Numbered from the stretch's first letter, positions 6,713 to 17,836 are shown. The stretch is DNA of 24,000 nt from Candidatus Micrarchaeales archaeon (GCA_050749785.1 JBOGSA010000002.1:37447-61446), one strand, 5' to 3'. Notes: generated by a model from the sequence alone, not told the origin. Numbers and translations: made by a program.

Positions 6713-6724
6713 TTGGTGCTTTTT

Positions 6725-7993
6725 ATGCCACTCTCACAGCCAAGGGGCGTTAGGGACTTCGGACCCGCAGATGCCATTGCAAGGAAGAGAATAATCGCGG
6801 TTGTAGAAGAGACATTCAAGAGATTCGGATTTTTGTTCATAGAAACGCCGGCAATCGAGAACCTAGAAGTTCTCAACACAAAAGCGTACGGCGACGAGGC
6901 CTCAAAGCAGATCTACAAAATACAAGACGATGATTCTGCGCTCAGGTTCGATCTTACAATCCCAATGGCTAGATATGTCGCGATGAACGGCAACATGCCG
7001 CTGCCATTCAAGAGATACCAGATTGGCCAGACATGGAGACGCGACGAGCCGCAGAAGATGCGCTATAGGGAATTCACGCAAGCAGACATCGATATAGTTG
7101 GAGGCGCCGGCCCGGAAAACGATGCAGAGATAATCGCCGCATCATCTTTTGCGCTTGAGGAACTGGGGCTCACCGACTACAAAATCCTGCTAAACAGCAG
7201 AATAATACTCAATGCAGTGATGGAGTCATTTGGAATCGGCGCAGAGAATCAAGCAGCCGCGATAAGAACGCTTGACAAGCTCGCAAAGGTGAGCATCCAG
7301 GAGACAGAGGACCAAATCGCAAAGCTTACGGATGCAAGGAATGCAGAAAAGCTCGTGGAATTCATAACCCAAGAGGGATTAAACGAAGAGAAGCTCGAGA
7401 GGATTGCGGCAAACATCACAGAAACAAAAGTGGAGGTTGACAAGCTGCAGAAGCTAATCGAACTGATCCGCACCTACAAACTGCGCGGCGAAGTTGTCTT
7501 CTCACCATCGCTTGCCCGCGGGCTTGACTACTACACAAGCTTCGTGTGGGAGTTCGTGATCACCTACAATGGAAAGACGCTGCCCACAATCGCCGCTGGC
7601 GGAAGGTACGACAATTTGATGGAATTATACTCAAAGAAGAGCATGCCGGCGGTCGGATGCTCAATCGGGATCGATAGGGTCTTTGATGTGATCGAGACGC
7701 AGCCGATGCAAGCACCAACTTCGAAACTATTTGTTGCTGTCATAGGTGATGAAAATTACAATTACGCACTCACAATCGCAAGCAGTGCACGCGCAAAAGG
7801 AATCTACACCGACATAAACACCACAAAGCGCAACATCTCAAAACAATTAGAGTATGCAAACGCACTTAAATTCAGATATGCAATAATAGTAGGTAATCAG
7901 GAGAGGTCTGCAAACAAGCTAAAGCTCAGGGATCTTGCAAGCGGCGATGAGGAATTGCTCTCGCTTGATGAGGCAATGCAGAAGATCGGGTAA
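6725..7993 (+). CDS. hisS: Histidyl-tRNA synthetase
   Basis: Class II HisRS motifs: PRGVRDFGP, YQIGQTWRRDEPQKMRYREFTQADIDIVG, GGRYDNL, GCSIGIDR. ATG at 6725; the track start at 6713 is TTG. Confidence 0.92.
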   Translation: MPLSQPRGVRDFGPADAIARKRIIAVVEETFKRFGFLFIETPAIENLEVLNTKAYGDEASKQIYKIQDDDSALRFDLTIPMARYVAMNGNMPLPFKRYQIGQTWRRDEPQKMRYREFTQADIDIVGGAGPENDAEIIAASSFALEELGLTDYKILLNSRIILNAVMESFGIGAENQAAAIRTLDKLAKVSIQETEDQIAKLTDARNAEKLVEFITQEGLNEEKLERIAANITETKVEVDKLQKLIELIRTYKLRGEVVFSPSLARGLDYYTSFVWEFVITYNGKTLPTIAAGGRYDNLMELYSKKSMPAVGCSIGIDRVFDVIETQPMQAPTSKLFVAVIGDENYNYALTIASSARAKGIYTDINTTKRNISKQLEYANALKFRYAIIVGNQERSANKLKLRDLASGDEELLSLDEAMQKIG

Positions 7994-7997
7994 GAAA

Positions 7998-8492
7998 ATG
8001 GCAAAGGATGAAGTAAGCAAGGTAACGCACGACGCGCTCCAAGAAGGCGGAGTTCTAGCCAAGCTTTATTTTGACATGCACAGCGAGAAAGAGGAGGATC
8101 TGCAGCCGCTGATGACAGATCTGATAAGCAATAGGCTGCTCAAGACGCCGGGCGTAATATACTGCGTGGGTGAGATTGCCGAGCCAATAAAAATAGAGGA
8201 GATTTATTCCACCAACGCCGTGGCAACAATACTCTTCAAGGACATCGGTGCTCTGATAAACGTCACATTCAACTACGCACCAGCCGGCATCGAGATAATA
8301 AAACCAGAAAAGGAGGTTGCGATAAAGGTTAGCGAGCTCCAATCCATACTTCTCGACCTATCGAAAGTTGCGATGGAGTATTCACAGTTCATACTCAGCC
8401 GGGTCCTTTCAAAGGAGGACTACGAAAAAGTGCAGGGCGACCTCAAGAACAGGGAACTCGTGGGAAAGAGGCTGCTCGAGAAGAAGGAGTAG
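7998..8492 (+). CDS. Hypothetical 164-aa protein (gene X; left flank of the cassette array)
   Basis: ATG at 7998, 4 nt after the hisS stop. Its last 86 codons are duplicated at 11067-11327 with a purifying-selection pattern, which argues for a real, conserved gene. Family not recognised. Confidence 0.7.
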   Translation: MAKDEVSKVTHDALQEGGVLAKLYFDMHSEKEEDLQPLMTDLISNRLLKTPGVIYCVGEIAEPIKIEEIYSTNAVATILFKDIGALINVTFNYAPAGIEIIKPEKEVAIKVSELQSILLDLSKVAMEYSQFILSRVLSKEDYEKVQGDLKNRELVGKRLLEKKE

Positions 8493-8524
8493 TAGTTTGG
8501 TTATAAACGAATCTTGTAATCAGC

Positions 8525-8532
8525 TTTATAAA
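8525..8532 (+). promoter_or_regulatory. TATA-like box (TTTATAAA) inside a 36-nt block conserved at the left edge of both cassettes
   Basis: Block 8497-8532 aligns with 11419-11454 at about 27/36 identity and ends in an identical TTTATAAA. It lies upstream of small gene E in both copies. Confidence 0.5.
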
Positions 8533-8588
8533 TAAGGGCAAACAACATTAACTTGAAGCAAGAACCATATTTGCAACTGCGTGAAAAA

Positions 8589-8774
8589 ATGGGCGGAACA
8601 ATAAATAAGAACGGCAAACTGTATAAAACAGAAAGAAGGATAACCTTCGTTATGTCACCTAAGAATGGTTGCCCACGTTTCAGCATAACGGGAAACGTAA
8701 CAAAATTCAGAGACGACTTTGGCGGCAGAGTTAAATCAAAAGGAAAGCTTATAAGACACTTTACCTCTGTTTAA
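8589..8774 (+). CDS. Cassette 1 small protein E1 (61 aa), function unknown
   Basis: ATG 8589 within track ORF 8553-8774. An ungapped alignment with hand-translated E2 shares CPR..(I/V).G..(V)KF.DD(F/Y). Position and the 3-prime/3-prime overlap with R are conserved in both cassettes. Confidence 0.45.
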   Translation: MGGTINKNGKLYKTERRITFVMSPKNGCPRFSITGNVTKFRDDFGGRVKSKGKLIRHFTSV

Positions 8775-9789
8775 CTACTGATTTAATAAATTCCCTTTGT
8801 TTCTCATACTCCTCCAAATGAGAAGGCCACTTGCCAACTATAATATCGGTAAGTATTGCCCTATCTATTTTTGGCTTTTCTGTTTTCCACATAGTTTGTA
8901 CTAGTTCGGCGCCTCTTTTTGACATCTCCTCCCCATTCTTGAAAGTGCACATAGAAAACACATCATAAGTGCCATTAATGTTAACATCGAGCACATAGTC
9001 ACTTGTTGCCCCATTAAAACTTTCTGTAGTAAATTCTTTTGCCAAATTAAGGGCCAGTTCTTGGTGGTTTTTTACAGGTGTTAATGTTGCCCCATATGCC
9101 AAAATAATCTTCTTATCTGTCTCTTGAGTTAGGGCAGCAAATTTCCTAATAATTTTCTTTTGTTCAAGTTTTTCAAGTATGTAAATGGCCCTCATCTGCG
9201 TTGTCTTCGCCTTATTCACCAGCTCCTTTAACTTTATTCTTGAGTTTTCATTTACCGCTTTTAGCACCGCTTTTTCAGTTTTGTTGAGTATTGGACTTAG
9301 TTCAATCAGCTCATTTTTCAACGGTAAAAACCCAACAATGTATTCATTGATCGTAGAAGTCTTGAAGATCGGCACATAATCGCTCAAATCCATCCTGAGC
9401 TTAAACTGCCATGTTTGGAAGTCTTTTGAGGTTAAACCTACCACATAAAGAAGAAGGTCAAAGTCTCCCGTTCCCAAATAAGCGTCCTGTACGAAGACAT
9501 CCCTCCTGAATTTATTGTATAGAAATTCTCTCGTAGGCGTATTCTCAAATTTTACCGTTATGAGTCTGCCCTCAGAAAAACCTAAGGCAACCTCGTCAAG
9601 TTCAACTGTATAATATATATGGTATCGTGCCTCCAGTTCCTTTAAAACTTTGGAGATAGTAAAATGGGAAACCCCTATTTCACGAGATAATTCCCTAATA
9701 GTAATTCGGGAATTTTTGGCTATTCTAACTAAAATCTGATAAGGCACTTCTTCCCGTATGAATTTCATAGCTTTTCGCGTGTGCACCAT
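8761..9789 (-). CDS. Cassette 1 regulator R1: two tandem wHTH + RAM-like modules (Lrp/AsnC-like)
   Basis: HTH-like segments: ILVRIAKNSRITIRELSREIGVSHFTISKVLKELE and VLKAVNENSRIKLKELVNKAKTTQMRAIYILEKLEQKKIIRKF. Each is followed by a RAM-like segment, e.g. LITVKFEN...VQDAYLGTGDFDLLLYVVGLTSKDF. ATG at 9789; TTG alternative at 9801. Confidence 0.7.
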   Translation of the reverse strand: MVHTRKAMKFIREEVPYQILVRIAKNSRITIRELSREIGVSHFTISKVLKELEARYHIYYTVELDEVALGFSEGRLITVKFENTPTREFLYNKFRRDVFVQDAYLGTGDFDLLLYVVGLTSKDFQTWQFKLRMDLSDYVPIFKTSTINEYIVGFLPLKNELIELSPILNKTEKAVLKAVNENSRIKLKELVNKAKTTQMRAIYILEKLEQKKIIRKFAALTQETDKKIILAYGATLTPVKNHQELALNLAKEFTTESFNGATSDYVLDVNINGTYDVFSMCTFKNGEEMSKRGAELVQTMWKTEKPKIDRAILTDIIVGKWPSHLEEYEKQREFIKSVVKQR

Positions 9790-9912
9790 TTTATCTTCCA
9801 AAATAATTATTTATTTATTATATTAATGATAAATACTATAATTTATTTGATTTATTTGCCAATAAATATATATACCCAAAACTTCATAATTATTTCCAGA
9901 GGGAATTGGATT
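9790..9912. promoter_or_regulatory. AT-rich divergent control region of cassette 1 (between R1 and the A1-D1 operon)
   Basis: About 85% A+T by eye, with multiple TATA-like boxes on both strands. Contains the tandem direct repeat ATTTATTTG x2 at 9841-9858. Confidence 0.55.
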
Positions 9913-10182
9913 ATGGGGATATACACTGCCAATGCTTTCCCAAAGTTTGGCAAGACTGATTTTCTTCACTCCCTAAAGAATACCCATCCCAAGGTAAGTT
10001 CCCATATCCTTCCCTCCATCTACAACTCCTTCATCAAAAGATTCGTAAGACCGAAATTTGTCAGAAAATCGTACCTATGTTGGCAGTGTGAGGAGAAATA
10101 CTCCGATCCCCTGAAATATACCATGCATATGCGGGACTGCTGTTGCATAAAGCAATGTGCCACTATAGAGGTAATTAAATGA
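9913..10182 (+). CDS. Cassette 1 protein A1: small classical (beta-beta-alpha type) C2HC zinc-finger protein
   Basis: The segment YLCWQCEEKYSDPLKYTMHMRDC fits Y-x-C-x2-C-x3-Y-x5-Y-x2-H-x3-C. About 65% aa identity to A2. ATG at 9913 within track ORF 9781-10182. Confidence 0.8.
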   Translation: MGIYTANAFPKFGKTDFLHSLKNTHPKVSSHILPSIYNSFIKRFVRPKFVRKSYLCWQCEEKYSDPLKYTMHMRDCCCIKQCATIEVIK

Positions 10183-10346
10183 AGCCGCATGAACGTGCCA
10201 TGGAGATGCTCTTGCAAATAAGCGAGATGAACCTCATGCTGCCTGAGCTCTATAGCCACCTTCCAAGGAACGACTGGATAAGGATTAAGCAGCTTCTCGA
10301 GGAGACACAGCAGATACTCGAAAAGCATAGGAGGGTGCCGATATGA
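10179..10346 (+). CDS. Cassette 1 protein B1: 55-aa helical protein
   Basis: Hand-translated: MKPHERAMEMLLQISEMNLMLPELYSHLPRNDWIRIKQLLEETQQILEKHRRVPI. ATGA overlap with the A1 stop. 44/55 identical to B2. Below the track cutoff. Confidence 0.75.
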   Translation: MKPHERAMEMLLQISEMNLMLPELYSHLPRNDWIRIKQLLEETQQILEKHRRVPI

Positions 10347-10504
10347 ACTACTACGCCTACATCAGGAGAAGGTGCGCAGACCTTATCAGCCTGAGGTTCA
10401 AGTTGCACAAGCTATTCAATTTCCTGCATGGCCCGGATTTTGAAAGGCTGCAGGAATTGCTTGATGAAGCAGAACAGATACTTAAGAAATACGAGAATAT
10501 GTGA
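10343..10504 (+). CDS. Cassette 1 protein C1: 53-aa helical protein, paralogous to B
   Basis: Hand-translated: MNYYAYIRRRCADLISLRFKLHKLFNFLHGPDFERLQELLDEAEQILKKYENM. ATGA overlap with the B1 stop. The first 51 aa are identical to C2 despite about 13 synonymous nucleotide differences. Confidence 0.85.
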   Translation: MNYYAYIRRRCADLISLRFKLHKLFNFLHGPDFERLQELLDEAEQILKKYENM

Positions 10505-10517
10505 ATTGTGTGTTTTC

Positions 10518-10802
10518 ATGTCTTCAAAAAGGAAGTGTAGGATAGCATGCGAAAGCCAAAAGCTGCGCAGTTTCATAATGCTAAAGCCCTCACTGCCTGC
10601 CAACTCGCACGCAGTAGCAAAGGAGATCGCGATGTGCAGGGGCGTGAGGGAGGTGGCACTTACGACAGGCGAATTTGGATTTATTGTAGGAGTAGAGTCA
10701 GAGCCATTGGTTGAAGAGATCAAAAGGAAGATTCACACAATTGCACATTCCAAAAAGATGAGTGTGCTTGTCAAGCATTTTTCGTACAAAAATACACTAT
10801 AA
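10518..10802 (+). CDS. Cassette 1 protein D1: stand-alone RAM (Lrp/AsnC ligand-binding-like) domain protein
   Basis: FIMLKPSLPANSHAVAKEIAMCRGVREVALTTGEFGFIVGVES resembles the RAM beta-alpha-beta-beta core (V.EV..VTGEYDLIV.VE). About 65-70% identical to D2. ATG 10518; TTG 10506 is possible. Confidence 0.75.
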   Translation: MSSKRKCRIACESQKLRSFIMLKPSLPANSHAVAKEIAMCRGVREVALTTGEFGFIVGVESEPLVEEIKRKIHTIAHSKKMSVLVKHFSYKNTL

Positions 10803-10804
10803 AG

Positions 10805-11062
10805 TCATTTCGCCAGCCCGCGCAGGAAAAACCTCTTTATCACGACGCTCGGCCTGTCCATGTCGCCGTATTTTCCAAGGAACGATTCGAGGCCCATCAG
10901 TTTTATCACCCTGGCAATCCTCTCAAGGCTCTTTTTGCTCTGCGTTGCGTAAAGGTTGTAGAAGAAAGAATGCAGCCTGACTTCTTTCTCAAACTCCTTC
11001 CTCCATTTGCGCTCATATGTGCTGAGCTGCGTTCCTTTGTTTATGTGGCTTGCGATTGCATC
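10805..11062 (-). pseudogene. 3-prime fragment (last 85 codons + stop) of a GGR-family gene
   Basis: Encodes DAIASHINKG...FFLRGLAK, 85/85 aa identical to the end of 13807-14913, with about 9 nucleotide differences that are all synonymous. It lacks the remaining ~283 codons. The upstream extension of track ORF 10805-11107 is antisense of the X fragment. Confidence 0.88.
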
Positions 11063-11066
11063 AGTG

Positions 11067-11327
11067 CTCTTCAAGGACATCGGCGCGCTGATAAACGTGG
11101 CGTTCAACTACGCCCCGGCGGGAATCGAGATAATGAAGCCGGACAAGGAAGTGTCGATAAAGACGAGCGAGCTCCAGTCCATAATACTCGACCTATCGAA
11201 AGTTGCGATGGAGTATTCACAGTTCATACTCAGCAGAGTGCTATCCAAGGAGGATTTCGAAAAGGCCAAGACCGACCTGCAAAACAGAGAGATGATAGGC
11301 AAGAAGCTCCTTGAAAAGAAGGACTAA
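11067..11327 (+). pseudogene. 3-prime fragment (last 86 codons + stop) of a gene-X homologue
   Basis: LFKDIGALINVAF...LLEKKD is 71/86 identical to the X C-terminus, and the replacements are mostly conservative. It lacks the first 78 codons. The upstream part of track ORF 11007-11327 is antisense of the GGR fragment. Confidence 0.88.
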
Positions 11328-11446
11328 AAAATCAATAATCGCATTTTATTCTCCACCCATCTGGAATATCTATTTTTATTTCCATTTTCCTCCATTTTTA
11401 GACCCCTTGAAATATCAATTGATAATAAACGAAGTTACATATCAGA

Positions 11447-11454
11447 TTTATAAA
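11447..11454 (+). promoter_or_regulatory. TATA-like box (TTTATAAA) of the conserved left-edge block, cassette 2
   Basis: Counterpart of 8525-8532. Lies about 36 nt upstream of the E2 ATG. Confidence 0.5.
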
Positions 11455-11489
11455 GGGGGATTGCAATGATTATTTGTATAGTGAGTTAA

Positions 11490-11660
11490 ATGAGAATTAT
11501 AAAGAGCAACAATAAGACAGTAATAGTAGCATCGGGGGGGGACAATGGCTCACAGTGCCCACGAGGAATCGTATCTGGCAGTCATGTTAAGTTTGCTGAT
11601 GATTACCACAATAAACTTATAGCTAAGAAATCTCTCGTCTTTAAGCTATTTCTTGTATGA
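11490..11660 (+). CDS. Cassette 2 small protein E2 (56 aa), function unknown
   Basis: Hand-translated: MRIIKSNNKTVIVASGGDNGSQCPRGIVSGSHVKFADDYHNKLIAKKSLVFKLFLV. Weak but positional homology to E1. Overlaps the R2 3-prime end by 15 nt. Contains a G8 run. Confidence 0.4.
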   Translation: MRIIKSNNKTVIVASGGDNGSQCPRGIVSGSHVKFADDYHNKLIAKKSLVFKLFLV

Positions 11661-12767
11661 TTTTGGTATTAATTTTGCCGATTCTAGGAATTTATATTGT
11701 CTAGAGTATACGGCATCAAAATCTCTGACACCTGTATTACCAAGCAATATCTGTGTCATGAAGAAGGGTTTTATTGATGATCCATGTAACTCTGTCCTTA
11801 ATTTATTAAGGAACTTTTCAGCAGAATTACCATCAACAAAATTCATAAAAATTATTATGCCTTGTGGGGTAGAAATATCGCACATGAAAGTATACTCTAT
11901 GTGTTTATCATAATCCCTAACCATATCTAGCCACCAGACTGATCTGCTATTTAGAAATTGTTTGTCGTTAAGTATCGTGACTTGGACTATGAGCGTAACA
12001 ACATTGTTTGGCTTATTTTCATAGTAAGTAATTCTGCGAAGCATTCCTGTATCTATCAACCTTTCATACGCATAGATAATATGCGGTAATCCATGTTTTG
12101 ATTCTTTTGCAATGGCACTAAACTCCTTTCTCCCATCTTCATTCAATGCTAGCAGAATGTGTTTATACGTATCTAGTATTTGGAATTTCTCTACGAGATT
12201 ATTTTGCATAGGGAAGAAACCGAAGGTCGTGCGTATGTTCAATAGCTCAGAACGTATTTCATAATGTTTATCAAGGCTGCTGATGTCCTCTCTAAAAGTA
12301 TTTAAAAATCTGTTTATCTCGTCGTAGCTTCTTGCAATTCCATATATAACTACATCATATTCGCCATGCAATCTTGCTGCAAATTGCGGTATATAATGTT
12401 TTTCAAGAGCTTTTGAGAACTCAATGTCTGTAGGGATACCATCTATGAATTTGATGAATATTAGGTACTCTTCGAAGCCTAACTCCGGCAACTTTTCAAT
12501 AACGTTTTCTAAGATTCCCTTCTTATTGTAGGTTCTCGCATATTTTACAAATTCCCATCGCCACAATTCCTCTATCCCTATTTCGGGAGTAAAACGTATG
12601 TCCTGTTCCTTTACCGTCTCTCTAAATAATCTATTCAAGGTGGTTTGGGGGACATTAAGTTTTGAAGCAAGATCCCTTATACTTCTTCTTCCATCAACAC
12701 TCAAAAGTTTCAGCATCCTTCTCTTAATTGCTGCCTTTTCCTCATCACTAAATATTCTGTCAGGCAT
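11646..12767 (-). CDS. Cassette 2 regulator R2: two tandem wHTH + RAM-like modules (Lrp/AsnC-like)
   Basis: HTH-like segments: LKLLSVDGRRSIRDLASKLNVPQTTLNRLFRE and ILLALNEDGRKEFSAIAKESKHGLPHIIYAYERLIDTGMLRRI. RAM-like segment: LIFIKFIDG...AARLHGEYDVVIYGIARSYDEINRF. Same architecture as R1 but only about 20% identity by eye. ATG at 12767; TTG alternative at 12785. Confidence 0.7.
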   Translation of the reverse strand: MPDRIFSDEEKAAIKRRMLKLLSVDGRRSIRDLASKLNVPQTTLNRLFRETVKEQDIRFTPEIGIEELWRWEFVKYARTYNKKGILENVIEKLPELGFEEYLIFIKFIDGIPTDIEFSKALEKHYIPQFAARLHGEYDVVIYGIARSYDEINRFLNTFREDISSLDKHYEIRSELLNIRTTFGFFPMQNNLVEKFQILDTYKHILLALNEDGRKEFSAIAKESKHGLPHIIYAYERLIDTGMLRRITYYENKPNNVVTLIVQVTILNDKQFLNSRSVWWLDMVRDYDKHIEYTFMCDISTPQGIIIFMNFVDGNSAEKFLNKLRTELHGSSIKPFFMTQILLGNTGVRDFDAVYSRQYKFLESAKLIPKSYKK

Positions 12768-12915
12768 ATTTCTCTTTTGAATCAAACATTTTTAAGTCTT
12801 TGGTTTATATTAAGAATTATTTACCAATTTATTCAATATTTAGCCTATTAATAGCACATATTATTCTAACTACTTATAAAAGTATCTAACTGCATATTAT
12901 ATTTGGGATTTGGGA
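12768..12915. promoter_or_regulatory. AT-rich divergent control region of cassette 2
   Basis: AT-rich with TATA-like boxes, e.g. CTTATAAAAG about 38 nt upstream of the A2 ATG. Contains the tandem repeat ATTTGGG x2 at 12901-12914. The sequence is not alignable with the cassette 1 control region. Confidence 0.55.
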
Positions 12916-13179
12916 ATGGGAACTTACATCGTCGAAACTTACAAGTTAGGCACTACTGATTTTCTTCACTCCCTGAAGAACAACCCCCAGAAGGTAAGTT
13001 CCCAAACCTCTCCCTCATTCTATAAGTCCTTTATCAAAAGATTCGCAAGAACAAAAGTCATAAAGAAAGCCTACTTGTGCTGGGAATGCGAGGCGAAGTA
13101 TTCTGATCCTTTGAAATATGCTATACACTTGGAAGACTGCTGCACTAAACAGTGTGCCACAATCGAGGTAATTAAATGA
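12916..13179 (+). CDS. Cassette 2 protein A2: classical C2HC zinc-finger protein
   Basis: YLCWECEAKYSDPLKYAIHLEDC has the same spacing as A1. ATG 12916; the track start at 12910 is TTG. Confidence 0.8.
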   Translation: MGTYIVETYKLGTTDFLHSLKNNPQKVSSQTSPSFYKSFIKRFARTKVIKKAYLCWECEAKYSDPLKYAIHLEDCCTKQCATIEVIK

Positions 13180-13343
13180 AGCCGCATGAACGTGCCATGG
13201 AGATGCTCTTGCAAATAAGCGAGATGAACCTCATGCTGCCTGAAATATACAATCACCTTACCATGAATGATTGGTACAGACTAAAGCAGCTCCTCGAGGA
13301 GGCAGAACAGATACTGGAAAAACACAAGAAGGTCTCGATATGA
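13176..13343 (+). CDS. Cassette 2 protein B2: 55-aa helical protein
   Basis: Hand-translated: MKPHERAMEMLLQISEMNLMLPEIYNHLTMNDWYRLKQLLEEAEQILEKHKKVSI. ATGA overlaps at both ends, as in cassette 1. Confidence 0.75.
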   Translation: MKPHERAMEMLLQISEMNLMLPEIYNHLTMNDWYRLKQLLEEAEQILEKHKKVSI

Positions 13344-13504
13344 ACTATTATGCCTACATAAGGAGAAGGTGTGCAGATCTAATCAGCCTAAGGTTTAAGT
13401 TGCACAAGTTGTTTAACTTCCTGCATGGCCCGGATTTTGAAAGGTTGCAGGAATTGCTTGATGAAGCAGAACAGATACTTAAGAAATACGAGAGAAGCAT
13501 GTAA
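13340..13504 (+). CDS. Cassette 2 protein C2: 54-aa helical protein
   Basis: MNYYAYIRRRCADLISLRFKLHKLFNFLHGPDFERLQELLDEAEQILKKYERSM, the C-terminal part of track ORF 13271-13504. Confidence 0.85.
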   Translation: MNYYAYIRRRCADLISLRFKLHKLFNFLHGPDFERLQELLDEAEQILKKYERSM

Positions 13505-13515
13505 TGGTGTGTTTC

Positions 13516-13818
13516 ATGTCTTTGAAGAACAAGTGTAAGATAGCGTGCGAAAACCTGCGAAGTCAGCATGGCTTCATAATTCTGAAGCCCTCTTCGTCTA
13601 TTAATTCACACATTGTTGCAAAGGAGATCGCGATGTGCGAGGGTGTAAAGGAAGTGGCGTTGACAACTGGCGAATTTGGATTTGTAGTGAGGGTGGAGTC
13701 AAGAATAGGGATTGAAGGCATCAAAAGGAAAATTTCTGCAATTACTCATTCTAAAAAGGCAAGTATCCTCGTAAAGCATTTTTCATACCGAAATACCATC
13801 CATAATTCATTTAGCTAA
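13516..13818 (+). CDS. Cassette 2 protein D2: stand-alone RAM-domain protein
   Basis: FIILKPSSSINSHIVAKEIAMCEGVKEVALTTGEFGFVVRVES. ATG at 13516 is homologous to the D1 start; an upstream ATG at 13504 is possible. The 3-prime end overlaps the GGR stop region by 12 nt. Confidence 0.75.
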   Translation: MSLKNKCKIACENLRSQHGFIILKPSSSINSHIVAKEIAMCEGVKEVALTTGEFGFVVRVESRIGIEGIKRKISAITHSKKASILVKHFSYRNTIHNSFS

Positions 13819-14913
13819 GCCGCGCAGGAAAAACCTCTTTATCACGACGCTCGGCCTGTCCATGTCGCCGTATTTTCCAAGGAATGATTCGAGGCCCATC
13901 AGTTTTATCACCCTGGCAATCCTCTCAAGGCTCTTTTTGCTCTGCGTTGCGTAAAGGTTGTAGAAGAAAGAATGCAGCCTGACCTCCTTTTCAAATTCCT
14001 TCCTCCATTTGCGCTCATATGTGCTGAGCTGCGTTCCTTTGTTTATGTGGCTTGCGATTGCATCTGCGGCATATCGAGCTCCGTTTCCGCCGAATATTAT
14101 TCCGCCTCCGGTGGTTGGCTTCACCTGACCTGCAGCATCGCCGACAAGAAGCACCTCTTCTTTGTCCTTCACGAAATGTTCGCGCATCCCAACCGGAATG
14201 AAACTTGCGCCTTCTGTTATGAATTTTCCGCTCTTTACTACCTCTGCAATCGCAGGGATTTTCTTGAATTTCTCAAATGATGACTTGCTGTTGCCAAACT
14301 TCGAGTCAATCCCTATTCCTATTTCCGCGATATCTTTTGAGTTTGGGCAGATCCATCCGAAGAATCCAGGGGTGAGGTCGTTGTCGAAAAATAGCTCCAC
14401 CATGCTGTTCTCCTCTAACTTATAATCATATTCCGCCCTGAAAGTGAGAATCTGCCTTTGTATTGCAGGAAACTTGAAATGCCTTGCCACAGACGACACA
14501 GCTCCATCGGCGCCTACCACTATCTTCTCCTGCGACAACTTATCGAATAGGGTAGCATCAACCTTTGTACCAATATGCATCTTCACTCCCTTCTTCTCGC
14601 TCTCTTCTAAAAGCAGCTTGTTGAGTTCAAATCGCTCAAGTACATAGGCCACAGCCTTCTGTGATTTTATCTCTAGTATCTCCTTGCCTATGTGTAATTT
14701 TGCTCCGTGTAAGGTGTTGGTCATCACCTTCCTGTAATCTATGCCCAAGGTTTCAAGTCCGCTGATCGAAAGGATTCCGGATGCTCGCACAGGAAATCCA
14801 GGCGTCTTGTTCTGGTCGTACACATCAGTTTCTATTCCAAAATCACGCAGCCTGTTTGCAGCAATTAACCCTGCAGTTCCTGCCCCAATAATCGCAACAC
14901 TATTCTTCATCAA
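13807..14913 (-). CDS. Geranylgeranyl reductase-family FAD-dependent oxidoreductase (right flank of the cassette array)
   Basis: N-terminal dinucleotide fold VAIIGAGTAGLIAANRL...DVYDQ, followed by LLVGDAAGQVKPTTGGGI. Length and motif order are typical of archaeal GGR-family proteins. Confidence 0.85.
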   Translation of the reverse strand: MMKNSVAIIGAGTAGLIAANRLRDFGIETDVYDQNKTPGFPVRASGILSISGLETLGIDYRKVMTNTLHGAKLHIGKEILEIKSQKAVAYVLERFELNKLLLEESEKKGVKMHIGTKVDATLFDKLSQEKIVVGADGAVSSVARHFKFPAIQRQILTFRAEYDYKLEENSMVELFFDNDLTPGFFGWICPNSKDIAEIGIGIDSKFGNSKSSFEKFKKIPAIAEVVKSGKFITEGASFIPVGMREHFVKDKEEVLLVGDAAGQVKPTTGGGIIFGGNGARYAADAIASHINKGTQLSTYERKWRKEFEKEVRLHSFFYNLYATQSKKSLERIARVIKLMGLESFLGKYGDMDRPSVVIKRFFLRGLAK

Positions 14914-14971
14914 AAGCCCAAGTTGGTGTTTAAATAAGTTATCGTTCTTAAGTTATAAAATACGTGTCTTG

Positions 14972-17836
14972 ATGACCTTCTTAGTTCCGGCATTTATATC
15001 ATTACTATCTATAATAGTCCCTGGATTTTTCCTGGCACTAGCCCTGCTCAAAAAAACAAAGCTCAACATGTTTGAGATTGGTGCGATTGGATTCATATTC
15101 GGACTGATTTTCCCGCCAACAATGATCTGGCTCGAAGCCTACCTCATACCAATTTCACATGCATTCGCATTTTCCACAAACCTCTACAACATAAACGTTG
15201 TGCTTCTCACGATAATCGGCATAGTCCTCTGCTTCATGCAAGGAATTTTCTCCACCGACCACATAAAGCCATTCATCGGCATGGCAAAGTCTGCAAAGAG
15301 CCAGGCGACGGCAGAGAGTGTTGTTCTTAGCCCCAGCAAGAAGGGACACTCTTACATCTGGTACATATTGATGGGGCTTATGCTTGTCACATTCGCATCA
15401 AGGCTGCTAAGCCTTGGGATTGCACCAAATTTCTTCGAGTTCGACCCATATTTCGACATGCTCAGCACCCAATCCATACTCGTTCACGGCTATCAGGTTC
15501 TTTACGACCATTCTGCTTGGCCTACGCTAACCGCAGGCAGCCCGCACAGAATAGAACCAATAGTTCCTTATCTTGAGGCTTACTGGTACACAATCACAAA
15601 CCAGCTCCAGACGCACTACACGGCATTTAGCACCTCGCTCATGAGCGATGTTAGCAGCTTCTATCCACCAATAGTTGCTGCGCTGCTCGTCTTTGTCGTT
15701 TTCATGTTCCTATATCATGAGTATGGCGAGTTCCCGGCGATAATCGGCGGCACGCTTGCGACCGCAATGCCGGCACTCATCACAACATTCATCGCAGGAG
15801 AACAGCTCGTCGAACCATGGGGAATCTTCACGCTTTTCTTCTTCTATGCGGCGTATCTGCTCGCGGTCAACAACTTACATGAAAAGAAGTTCGCAATACT
15901 CGCAGGCATCGCCTTCGTATCCACCTTCCTAGGCGCTCACTACTACACGGTGGACGCGGGAGTTCTTGCGATATACATACTGCTGCAAGGAATAGTATTT
16001 GTCCTAAAGAAAGAGCACACAAAGGATTTCTACATCCTCAATATAATCGTAATCGCGATAATCGCAGTCTTCTACGTGCTCTTCGCGCCATATGGAAGCG
16101 TTCTTTCCAACAAGATACCGGCGTTGCTTGGCGTACCGATTATAATCGGCTTCCCGCTCTTTGCCATGATATTCGTCCTGATATTCGAATACATTCCAAA
16201 GCTGCTTGCACAGAAAAAGATACTCTTCAAGCAACTAAACTTCCTAGAATACGCAGGCTTTTTGCTGCTCCTTGCAATCGTTGCGATAGTGCTGATAATG
16301 TTCACATCGCTTGGCGAACCGGTGCAGAAATATATAACACTTAGCACCCACTTCACAACTCCCTCAATACCGTTGTTTGCAACAGTCCAGGAGTATTCGC
16401 CGACAGGATTTAACTTCAACTTCGGGTCTGCAGGCTTTGGAATAATTGGCGCAACCATTTTGGGAGTCAACTTGATAGTATGGCTAGTGCTGATTTTGTT
16501 CACAGCTCTTATGCTGCTTGCAATCTACCACAGGAATTCTAAGTTCAGCATCCTCTCTCTTGCCGCTGTATGGCCGCTTGCGATTGCAGGAATGGTAGAG
16601 GTGAAATATCTGCCGCACTTCGGAGTTGGTTACATACTTGCAATTGGCGCAATAATCGGGGAACTTTTGATACTGGCAAACAACAACTTCAAATTCAAGG
16701 ACATGGCAAATGTGATACCAACACTCAACCTCAAGCTCAGATCGGTGCAAGCGATAGCCGTTATCGCCATAATCGTTGTCATACTCGAATCTGGAGTGTT
16801 CCTAAACATTATAAGCGCTGTGGCTAATCCAAGCTGTGCCTCCCTTTCTAGTTCCAACAATCAGATAGGCTACACTCTTTATTGTGAGGTCGTATCGCAG
16901 CAGTGGCTGAGCGCACTCTCATGGATGAAGGCAAATGTAGGGCCGTACGCCCCAAGGGTGCTTGCATGGTGGGACTATGGAGACTGGATAAACTGGTTTG
17001 GCAACAGCAATGCGGTGCTCAGAGGAGACAACGCTGTAGCAACTTCAGACTACGCCACCGCAGCGCAGTATGTGCTAGTGAATTCTGACGGCGTTAATTC
17101 CTCGACCCTTTCATCTTACATGAACTCAATACAGGCAAAGTATGTGCTCTTTGATGATCAGCTGATGCAGAAGTGGGGCGCGCTGGACTATCTTGCATGT
17201 GTAAATGCAGGACAAACGAGCCTAGCATACGCAGTACAGCAGGGGCAGGCTAACGGCCAGCCCTACCAACTCGGCACATCTCAGTGTGAACTAGCCCACG
17301 ATCCTGTGTATGCGCTCGTTCCTGCAACGACCAACAACATAAACAATTACTGCCAGTTCAGCAATTCATCTGTCCAGGCGCTCAAGGTGATAATGCTAGC
17401 TGGCAACAACTTCCTCAATGTGACATACTGCGTTCCTGCAAGCCTATACAACAGCGTCAGCCCAGTGCATCTCTACACCACCAACGGAACGATGACGAAC
17501 GCAATGATCATACCTTCGCAGACATTCTTCTATGGCACAATTCCACTAAGCGGCCAGACATTTGCGGACTTCCTTGTTGTGTACCTGCCTAACGGGCCTA
17601 ACGACACGATAACAGATGCGCCTACGCAGTTCTACAATTCGAGCTACTACAAAGGATTCTTCTTTGGCAAGGTGAAGGGATTCAGTCTTGTCTACCCAGA
17701 GAACTTCACAGGAGTGAACTACATCAACAGTACGAACACTGTAATGATACTGCAAGTCGACAACTACACCGGCGGCATACCAACGGCGACTCCAAAGGCG
17801 AGCTACGTTACAAACAACTACACAATGCCTGGTTGA
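14972..17836 (+). CDS. aglB: Archaeal oligosaccharyltransferase AglB (STT3 family), 954 aa
   Basis: A multi-TM N-terminal half followed by the WWDYGDWINW (WWDYG) catalytic motif at 16967-16981. ATG 14972 was chosen because the track ORF start at 14741 runs antisense through the GGR gene. A TTTAAATA box lies about 40 nt upstream. Confidence 0.9.
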   Translation: MTFLVPAFISLLSIIVPGFFLALALLKKTKLNMFEIGAIGFIFGLIFPPTMIWLEAYLIPISHAFAFSTNLYNINVVLLTIIGIVLCFMQGIFSTDHIKPFIGMAKSAKSQATAESVVLSPSKKGHSYIWYILMGLMLVTFASRLLSLGIAPNFFEFDPYFDMLSTQSILVHGYQVLYDHSAWPTLTAGSPHRIEPIVPYLEAYWYTITNQLQTHYTAFSTSLMSDVSSFYPPIVAALLVFVVFMFLYHEYGEFPAIIGGTLATAMPALITTFIAGEQLVEPWGIFTLFFFYAAYLLAVNNLHEKKFAILAGIAFVSTFLGAHYYTVDAGVLAIYILLQGIVFVLKKEHTKDFYILNIIVIAIIAVFYVLFAPYGSVLSNKIPALLGVPIIIGFPLFAMIFVLIFEYIPKLLAQKKILFKQLNFLEYAGFLLLLAIVAIVLIMFTSLGEPVQKYITLSTHFTTPSIPLFATVQEYSPTGFNFNFGSAGFGIIGATILGVNLIVWLVLILFTALMLLAIYHRNSKFSILSLAAVWPLAIAGMVEVKYLPHFGVGYILAIGAIIGELLILANNNFKFKDMANVIPTLNLKLRSVQAIAVIAIIVVILESGVFLNIISAVANPSCASLSSSNNQIGYTLYCEVVSQQWLSALSWMKANVGPYAPRVLAWWDYGDWINWFGNSNAVLRGDNAVATSDYATAAQYVLVNSDGVNSSTLSSYMNSIQAKYVLFDDQLMQKWGALDYLACVNAGQTSLAYAVQQGQANGQPYQLGTSQCELAHDPVYALVPATTNNINNYCQFSNSSVQALKVIMLAGNNFLNVTYCVPASLYNSVSPVHLYTTNGTMTNAMIIPSQTFFYGTIPLSGQTFADFLVVYLPNGPNDTITDAPTQFYNSSYYKGFFFGKVKGFSLVYPENFTGVNYINSTNTVMILQVDNYTGGIPTATPKASYVTNNYTMPG

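Follow-up and report, generated by a model that had tools for sequence, protein, structure and literature searches.

Archaeal transcription factors of the Lrp/AsnC family, among them FL11 (PH1519) of Pyrococcus horikoshii, LrpA of Pyrococcus furiosus and LysM of Sulfolobus solfataricus, are homodimers of subunits of about 150 amino acids (aa), and many of them are transcribed divergently from an adjoining operon. Stand-alone RAM proteins, or demi-FFRPs (demi-feast/famine regulatory proteins), such as DM1 of P. horikoshii, STS042 of Sulfolobus tokodaii (2zbc) and TTHA0845 of Thermus thermophilus (2djw), consist of the RAM-type fold alone; DM1 was reported to form hetero-octamers with full-length FL11 in vitro (PMC2995911). 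The only solved protein in which two Lrp-like units are fused in tandem, NirDL (related to AhbA-AhbB), is an enzyme of alternative haem biosynthesis. Here we describe two diverged copies of a gene cassette in a stretch of 24,000 nucleotides (nt) from a Candidatus Micrarchaeales archaeon (GCA_050749785.1 JBOGSA010000002.1:37447-61446; hereafter the window, with positions counted from its first letter). Each cassette encodes a regulator, R, with the fused tandem architecture of NirDL, a small convergent partner gene, E, and a divergent operon of four small genes, A to D.

Each half of R shares the winged helix-turn-helix (wHTH) plus RAM architecture of the Lrp/AsnC factors, and R, like many of them, is divergent from the operon beside it. 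R differs from the known factors in three respects: two complete units are joined in one chain (340-373 aa), it has a constant convergent partner gene (E, 55-61 aa), and it occurs in two deeply diverged types. On balance, if by a narrow measure, we favour the reading that the cassettes represent a self-regulated add-on gene module specific to Micrarchaeota and inserted between two host genes, X and GGR.

The regulator R and the proteins encoded with it

The two cassettes (8497-10802 and ~11419-13818) lie between the convergent genes X and GGR and share one order: a promoter block, E (plus strand), R (minus strand), an AT-rich gap and A-B-C-D (plus strand). The 3' end of E and R overlap by ~14 nt. 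R and E are 20-31% identical between the copies, and the proteins of the divergent operon (the cargo) are 65-100% identical. All six open reading frames (ORFs) that an original prediction, made from the sequence of this stretch, had assigned to each cassette were found in place in both copies. The ATGA stop/start overlaps that it had described were also present in both: A/B at 10179-10182 and B/C at 10343-10346 in copy 1, read directly, and 4-nt overlaps at 13176-13179 (A/B) and 13340-13343 (B/C) in copy 2, taken from ORF coordinates. The features of the two cassettes are as follows.

Copy 1
8497-8532, plus strand: predicted E1 promoter block, with a TATA box at 8525-8532; 75% identical to 11419-11454
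8589-8774, plus strand: E1, 61 aa, belonging to a small family of orphan proteins
8761-9789, minus strand: R1, 342 aa, single-chain tandem Lrp/AsnC protein of type 1, identified by Pfam, PDB profile, AlphaFold and Foldseek
9790-9912, no strand assigned: AT-rich divergent control region 1, 17.9% GC, in which the predicted type-1 motif of the cargo promoter, CCAATAAATATATATAC, occupies 9859-9875
9907-10012, plus strand: predicted structured leader 1, with an outer stem over the A start codon, hairpin P2 and hairpin P3 with a CUCCC loop; covariance model 97.2 bits, minimum free energy (MFE) z -2.5
9913-10182, plus strand: A1, 89 aa, with a leader-encoded N-terminal part, a linker and a C2HC zinc finger
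10179-10346, plus strand: B1, 55 aa, helical hairpin, paralogue of C
10343-10504, plus strand: C1, 53 aa, the most conserved cassette protein
10518-10802, plus strand: D1, 94 aa, stand-alone RAM-type domain (most likely)

Copy 2
11419-11454, plus strand: predicted E2 promoter block, with a TATA box at 11447-11454
11490-11660, plus strand: E2, 56 aa
11646-12767, minus strand: R2, 373 aa, tandem Lrp/AsnC protein of type 2, identified by Pfam, a LysM-like module and identity to type-2 R
12768-12915, no strand assigned: AT-rich divergent control region 2, 21.1% GC (over 12768-12909), with the type-2 motif TTCTAA...TATAAAAG at 12864
12910-13012, plus strand: predicted structured leader 2; covariance model 89.8 bits, MFE z -2.8; perfect UCUUCA-CUCCC-UGAAGA hairpin
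12916-13179, plus strand: A2, 87 aa counted from ATG
13176-13343, plus strand: B2, 55 aa
13340-13504, plus strand: C2, 54 aa
13516-13818, plus strand: D2, 100 aa, with its end overlapping the 3' end of GGR

We found that R is a single-chain double Lrp-type regulator and not a member of the siroheme decarboxylase family. Pfam detected two helix-turn-helix (HTH) stretches in each copy (R1, HTH_24, 37.9 bits with a cut-off of 21.9; R2, HTH_AsnC-type, 36.3 bits with a cut-off of 27). A family profile of 44 R sequences matched Lrp/AsnC proteins in the PDB with both halves (residues 1-129, E 5e-15; residues 164-304, E 6e-11), and the second module of R2 was LysM-like (E 5.5e-9). By Pfam PF01037 alone, the RAM part of R was sub-threshold (R2, E 0.17). 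The AlphaFold2 model of R1, built from the 44-sequence alignment, showed an HTH followed by a β-α-β-β-α-β unit, twice over (pLDDT, the predicted local distance difference test, 94.9; predicted template modelling score 0.90). In Foldseek, the best full-length match was the fused NirDL (4ch7/4czc; E 1.5e-14, template modelling (TM) score 0.57-0.62, 14% identity); the remaining strong matches were single Lrp/AsnC transcription factors (TM 0.7-0.8 over 135-160 aligned residues). The NCBIfam AhbA equivalog (NF040708) was not matched by R (15.2 bits, cut-off 140): R shares the architecture of NirDL and AhbA-AhbB, yet it lacks a family-level sequence match to this enzyme and behaves as a local regulator. 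The profile and structure searches therefore agree on the two HTH+RAM modules that had been proposed for R. Because a single polypeptide holds wHTH and RAM twice, we propose that R acts as a covalent dimer.

The partner protein E belongs to a family of 12 homologues, every one of which is convergent with R and lies directly 3' of it, with conserved CPR and DD[FY] motifs. E2 is 30-31% identical to E1, and type-2 E proteins are 37-70% identical among themselves (39-54% for E2 of the window). Searches of Pfam, PHROG, PADLOC and the PDB returned no match for E.

The four cargo genes are real genes under purifying selection, and not chance ORFs. Between copies 1 and 2, the ratio of non-synonymous to synonymous rates (dN/dS) was 0.08 for A, 0.11 for B (B1 and B2 are 80% identical), 0 for C and 0.19 for D. 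C1 and C2 differ by 13 synonymous and 0 non-synonymous changes (P ~4e-10 under neutrality), with 51 of 51 residues identical.

D is most likely a free RAM domain, as had been proposed, with borderline statistics. On PF01037, D1 and D2 scored 18.0 and 19.4 bits (E 3e-3 for D1), below the curated Pfam cut-off of 25. The RAM region of the NCBIfam LysM model was matched at E 2e-4 to 8e-4, and the best PDB match of a 7-sequence D profile, over the full length, was Pyrococcus DM1 (2cvi/2e1a, a 75-aa stand-alone RAM protein; E 1e-3). A model of D1 from a 2-sequence alignment (pLDDT 71.6) had the β-α-β-β-α-β topology, and Foldseek placed 2djw, 2cvi, 2e1a and 2zbc at E 2e-3 to 1e-2, with generic ferredoxin-like proteins ranking above them. 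D resembles the demi-FFRPs in having the RAM-type fold alone. It differs from them in its Cys-rich N-terminal extension (KCxIACE), in its borderline sequence similarity to them, and in the position of its gene inside an operon that is predicted to be controlled by an Lrp-type regulator. D2 probably starts at 13516 (100 aa), as does an identical database protein (P0002).

A is a fusion of a leader-encoded N-terminal part with a zinc finger. Its C-terminal half carries the pattern Y-L-C-W-x-C-x3-Y-x5-Y-x2-H-x3-C, which is invariant in 7 homologues and has classical C2H2 spacing; a profile of this finger matched the PRDM9, ZBTB17 and Aart arrays (summed E 7e-10; single-finger E ~1). Pfam gave no zf-C2H2 match for A at E<=1. 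Ligand spacing and profile matches thus bear out the C2HC finger first read from the sequence. With the classical ββα C2H2 fingers A shares both ligand and hydrophobic spacing, and the profile also matched their TGEKP-like K-P linker region; unlike classical C2H2 arrays, A has a single finger whose last ligand is Cys and which is fused to a leader-encoded N-terminal segment. In the related loci L014-L019, described below, the finger is a separate gene of 46-49 aa, and in L028 it is fused.

B and C are paralogous helical hairpins, as anticipated: the family alignment joins them, and they share the motif D[FYW]xR[LI]xxL[LM]xExExIL. An exhaustive HMMER search of 1.84 billion cluster representatives with the B/C profile returned only 24 matches, 21 of them 42-100 aa long; a PDB profile search gave no meaningful match.

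Two side observations concern these small proteins. A is missing from the recorded gene calls of the contig despite strong purifying selection, and its counterpart in a second assembly (the ACREBF metagenome-assembled genome, MAG) is only a partial call. One B/C relative, P0062 (100 aa), joins a C-like helical hairpin to a C-terminal CxxC...CxxC zinc ribbon, and so forms a second link between B/C and zinc-binding modules.

Promoters, control regions and the leader of A

The 36-nt block that the original prediction had placed at the left edge of each cassette, upstream of E, was present in both copies. Most related cassettes have its core, ATAAACGAA-N10-12-AG-N-TTTATAAA, complete or partial, upstream of their E gene. 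Exact TTTATAAA was found in 7 of 12 cassettes, with the motif ~35-56 nt before the E start codon, and exact ATAAACGAA occurs within the window only at the two E promoter blocks. The tagtGAgttaaATG context is kept in most E promoter copies and is absent from window copy 1 and from L022. Because the core recurs upstream of E on other contigs, we assign the block as the putative promoter of E and not as a chance similarity.

The divergent region between R and the operon is highly AT-rich in both copies, as had been noted (17.9% and 21.1% GC against 45% for the window). The type-1 motif, CCAATAA[AG]TAT[AT]TATA, is near-invariant in six type-1 cassettes, radical S-adenosylmethionine (SAM) cargo loci included, and type-2 regions have TTCTAA...ATAA[AG]A and further blocks in common. 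This type-specific conservation fits a regulator that has co-evolved with its own operator/promoter, to which R would bind.

Between the cargo promoter and the first small gene lies a block of ~100 nt that is conserved at the nucleotide level in every small-protein cassette; in the window it coincides with the first 32-33 codons of A, the 5' third of that ORF. The other copies are at L014 9703-9808, L015 1756-1858, L016 2376-2492, L019 5761-5863, L021 72-171 and L028 4757-4859. RNAalifold and independent single-sequence folds gave the same three-helix structure, with single-sequence z-scores of -2.5 to -5.2. In this structure, a long outer stem takes in the AUG/GUG and the upstream Shine-Dalgarno (SD)-like GAGG of the first cistron; P2 is GCCAA...UUGGC; and P3 is UCUUCA-CUCCC-UGAAGA, in which the CACUCCC loop is invariant and the stem variants are compensatory (UCUUUA/UAAAGA and GAUUCA/UGAAUC). 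Pairing was possible in 88-90% of cells, compared with 22-53% when the partners were slid, with double changes at 6-8 pairs; among shuffled leaders, 0 to 14 of 500 reached the observed pairing values. In 270 kb of related sequence, the leader covariance model recovered cassette leaders only. It gave a weak, correctly placed match in L022, ahead of the 40-aa ORF and the radical SAM gene, and nothing in L018 or L024. Rfam gave no match at E<=5 for 8300-14000 on both strands.

We considered whether the block could be conserved as a peptide alone, and several findings weaken this explanation. Synonymous divergence in A is low only in the codons that overlap the leader (proportion of synonymous differences, pS, 0.27, compared with 0.62-1.16 downstream); by codon position, the differences in A number 1/5/5 in the leader overlap and 11/4/21 downstream. 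Between L015 and L019, all differences in the leader block are non-synonymous and fall in unpaired regions, and in L016 part of the block is read in another frame; the compensatory hairpins point the same way. The leader may serve both as RNA and as peptide, as most cassettes have an ORF with an SD-like sequence across it. A second candidate that we rejected, for P3, is a DNA hairpin of the IS200/IS605 type, raised by a TnpA gene beside L028: the hairpin is internal to the cassette and absent from its ends, and no transposase is encoded in the window.

We consider it probable that the leader is a cis-acting RNA element that would occlude the first start codon. Like the known cis-acting leaders that sequester a ribosome-binding site or start codon (riboswitches, RNA thermometers and protein-binding leaders), it is a conserved multi-helix 5' element; unlike them, it belongs to no Rfam family, and in the source genome it overlaps an ORF fused to a zinc finger. 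To our knowledge, no structured mRNA leader has been described in the Micrarchaeota phylum, and this candidate would be new there.

Insertion, relatives and probable recombination

The window is a chromosomal archaeal stretch. Exact protein matches assigned it to contig CDHSRO010000004.1 of the MAG GCA_975254265.1, and its nearest database proteins carry the label Candidatus Micrarchaeales. Its housekeeping genes include exosome RNase PH subunits, L37ae, a class I tRNA synthetase, a GNAT acetyltransferase and thioredoxin (Trx), and it also encodes an STT3/AglB-like protein, a GT4 glycosyltransferase, the TATA-binding protein and a thermosome subunit. The host genes and fragments around the cassettes are:

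6713-7993: histidyl-tRNA synthetase (HisRS)
7998-8492: X, 164 aa, MJ0538 family
10802-11062, minus strand: 3' fragment of GGR, 261 nt, 96% nt identity to 13804-14064
11058-11326, plus strand: 3' fragment of X, 269 nt, 80% nt identity to 8223-8491, ORF intact; recorded as a 94-aa MJ0538 gene
13807-14913, minus strand: GGR, geranylgeranyl-reductase-like flavoprotein

As a side observation on this neighbourhood, the longest ORF of the AglB/STT3-like gene (1031 aa; 14741-17836) would overlap the 5' end of GGR on the opposite strand; the record gives a 954-aa product with a start further downstream.

A scan of species-representative genomes with an X alignment yielded 11 Micrarchaeota loci. In 4 of the 11, one of them the closest (X 70% identical), the gene order Trx-HisRS-X→←GGR-AglB-GT4 has been kept and X adjoins GGR; in L003, the empty junction is ~15 nt. 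E, R, A, B, C and D were undetected anywhere in these four loci. Because four relatives have an empty junction, the cassettes are a lineage-specific insertion placed exactly between the stop codons of X and GGR.

The two host-gene fragments indicate how the second copy may have arisen. They meet head to tail at ~11058-11062, between the cassettes. The X fragment differs from full X with a synonymous divergence (dS) of 1.0 and a dN/dS of 0.105, and the GGR fragment differs from full GGR by 9 synonymous and 0 non-synonymous changes (P ~7e-7). Since these differences are nearly all synonymous, the fragments would have diverged in another lineage while they still belonged to functional genes. What was repeated would then be a unit of X-tail, cassette and GGR-tail, and its arrangement points to homologous recombination between diverged relatives (Campbell-type or unequal crossover) and not to a self-mobilising element. 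A simple in-situ tandem duplication followed by decay does not account for the whole story: the fragments differ almost only synonymously, and R and E are far more diverged than the cargo.

The tandem arrangement is not an assembly artefact, because counterparts of both D proteins occur in a second, independent assembly. A 61.5-kb contig of the ACREBF MAG encodes a protein whose 100 aa are all identical to D2 (100% identity, covering 96% of the query) and another, of 94 aa, that matches D1 in length and sequence, with the two locus tags six genes apart.

Beyond the window, we found 53 R homologues, all from Micrarchaeota-type MAGs. Among 5.8 billion proteins, homologues of A and D were only Micrarchaeales MAG proteins assigned to the same organism, and one of these (P0001) marks a third copy; a scan of genome contigs with the A alignment gave nothing. 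A metagenome scan with C yielded four loci, and look-ups of R homologues added more. Of the related loci listed here, the first two groups carry cargo of the window type in other genomic contexts:

L014 and L016/L017: E, R type 1, leader, B, C, 46-49-aa zinc finger, D
L015 and L019: E, R type 2, leader, C, zinc finger, D, B, 172-aa protein
L018: 41-aa ORF, D, 45-aa gene
L022 (3372-4900): 403-aa Radical_SAM + SPASM protein as divergent cargo, after a degenerate leader and a 40-aa ORF, in a layout like that of ribosomally synthesised and post-translationally modified peptides (RiPPs)
L024 (3670-4722): 350-aa radical SAM protein as cargo
L028 (3191-4853): R type 2, A-like fused protein of 95 aa, two small ORFs, 335-aa radical SAM protein, S51 peptidase

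In addition, a distant R adjoins an EamA transporter. The third cassette of the same genome (L021 1-1800) is at the end of contig 14 and is cut inside A; its A is 86% identical to A2, and after its type-2 R come two E genes in tandem, which share 62% identity.

In these loci, B, C, D and the zinc finger have homologues that occur together. The loci do not sustain the view that the six genes work as one unit of conserved order and fixed membership: relatives have a separate zinc-finger gene after C and B first or last, and some loci have a different cargo in its place: D with a 45-aa gene, a radical SAM enzyme on its own, or a radical SAM enzyme together with an A-like protein. By comparison across the loci, the constant core is E, R and the control regions, and the six genes in fixed order are peculiar to the source genome.

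R forms two ancient types: R proteins of one type are 46-80% identical, compared with 23-32% for those of different types, and E largely follows the same division. R1 and R2 share 26% identity, and R2 shares 54-59% with the other R proteins of type 2. The grouping of C and D follows the genome and not the R type: overall identity is 96% between C1 and C2, 85-92% among the C proteins from metagenomes, whatever their R type, and 66-71% between the two groups. This clustering by genome indicates that the cargo has probably undergone recombination or concerted evolution between co-resident cassettes, while the R/E types were maintained.

The neighbours of L014 (6557-8340, 10618-11784) and L028 (2466-3185, 6566-7021) form a separate observation. 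They include S51 and S66 (MccF-like) peptidases, a Mom-family protein (L014) and an IS200/IS605 TnpA (L028), which hints at a variable or mobile island context.

A working model and its rivals

Our results describe the cassettes by their gene content, by the folds of R and D, by purifying selection on A to D, by insertion relative to the empty junctions, by the distribution of the family, and by the conservation of promoter and leader. On this basis we infer a model of the self-regulated add-on module that extends to DNA binding by R, an R-D interaction, a function of the leader and a biological output. R would bind the AT-rich region between itself and the cargo operon and so control the cargo promoter, and probably its own promoter too. 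The leader of the cargo mRNA would act as a second gate, translational or at the level of RNA, through an outer stem across the SD-like sequence and the start codon. By analogy with DM1 and FL11, D, made from the regulated operon, might join or cap the RAM assembly of R and thereby feed back on it. The zinc finger, B and C may be small nucleic-acid- or protein-binding factors, and E would be an obligate partner of R, encoded at the R 3' end under its own conserved promoter.

Several points weigh against the add-on module as we have drawn it. The conserved motifs of the control regions may be just TATA and TFB-recognition (BRE) elements. The RAM match of D is borderline by sequence, its model is of moderate confidence, and its top Foldseek matches are generic ferredoxin-like proteins. 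The leader is known from only ~6 independent sequences, with an RNAalifold covariation term of ~0; the ORF is open across it in most cassettes, so that peptide constraint contributes; and the palindromic P3 could instead be a DNA operator.

A broader version of this model can be sketched, which we put forward as speculative and on the whole doubtful. The cassettes would be portable "plug-in" regulons in which R and E act at transcription and a new class of archaeal leader RNA, with an anti-Shine-Dalgarno-like loop, acts at translation, together gating interchangeable cargo. Cargo proteins (the zinc finger, D or B/C) might bind the leader or R for feedback, and the regulons would spread by homologous recombination via flanking fragments of host genes.

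Of the rival explanations, the one that survives best, although we judge it unlikely, is that the cassettes are a remnant or cargo of a mobile element (an archaeal virus, plasmid or integrative element), in which E, R and the small proteins would exert lysogeny- or maintenance-type control. Archaeal viruses typically encode small C2H2 fingers and wHTH proteins. The insertion relative to empty sites in relatives speaks for such an origin, as do at least three copies per genome in different contexts, a cassette GC of 37-39% against 45% in the surroundings, and the Mom-family and IS200/IS605 TnpA neighbours of L014 and L028. The cassettes of the window, however, contain no integrase, transposase, replication or structural gene, and no terminal repeats or attachment (att) sites were found there: the fragments of X and GGR are the sole repeats that flank them. 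Nor do the collections of phages, plasmids and viruses hold a backbone to which the cassette corresponds. There were no relatives of A, B/C, C or D in IMG/VR, no DNA match by blastn in INPHARED or PLSDB, and only generic HTH matches in PHROG.

The radical SAM enzymes that form the divergent cargo of L022, L024 and L028, and the S51 and S66 peptidases beside L014 and L028, suggest another origin: a RiPP-like peptide-modification or peptide-immunity system, in which R and E regulate small peptides and a radical SAM maturase, and of which the window copies would be maturase-less derivatives. We regard this as quite improbable. No radical SAM gene was found in either window cassette or in any window gene examined; D and the zinc finger have regulator-like folds; and purifying selection acts on B, D and the zinc finger over their whole length, with C invariant, unlike in precursor peptides with a leader and a core.

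Still less probable, in our assessment, is a toxin-antitoxin or antiviral defence module. The cassettes are small, multi-copy and variable, carry their own HTH regulator and occupy an insertion hotspot, and R weakly matches the HTH parts of Csa3/CARF models; yet PADLOC recognises no more than the generic wHTH of R, without a significant match in A-E (C gives a weak match to PDC-S21, E ~0.02), and no nuclease, ATPase or toxin-like domain is present. Finally, that R is a siroheme decarboxylase-type enzyme (NirDL/AhbAB) and not a transcription factor is very improbable, for against its best full-length structural match (4ch7/4czc) stand 14% identity to NirDL, 15 bits on an AhbA model that asks for 140, far better matches to profiles of Lrp/AsnC DNA-binding factors (E 5e-15), and a fast divergence into two types that co-vary with the promoter regions, as is typical of a local regulator.

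The genomes of DPANN archaea are tiny, with few recognisable regulators, and their lineage-specific genes are mostly unannotated; this locus gives their genomic dark matter a concrete, repeatable architecture. The self-regulated add-on module would also bear on questions beyond this lineage. It presents a single-chain double Lrp regulator, a form seen structurally so far only in an enzyme (NirDL). D, encoded inside the regulated operon, offers a natural test case for RAM-only proteins in hetero-assemblies, which have long been proposed and are physiologically unproven. The flanking fragments, in turn, have evolved under purifying selection, and they record what appears to be recombination between lineages at one defined junction in the chromosome of an uncultured symbiont.

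Set against known systems, the components are in large part familiar: an Lrp/AsnC regulator, a stand-alone RAM protein and a C2H2-type finger, together with two orphan mini-protein families (B/C and E). Their assembly varies the theme of an Lrp regulator with a divergent target operon, to which it adds the tandem-Lrp chain, E, type-specific control, the leader and exchangeable cargo, in a multi-copy and Micrarchaeota-restricted form.

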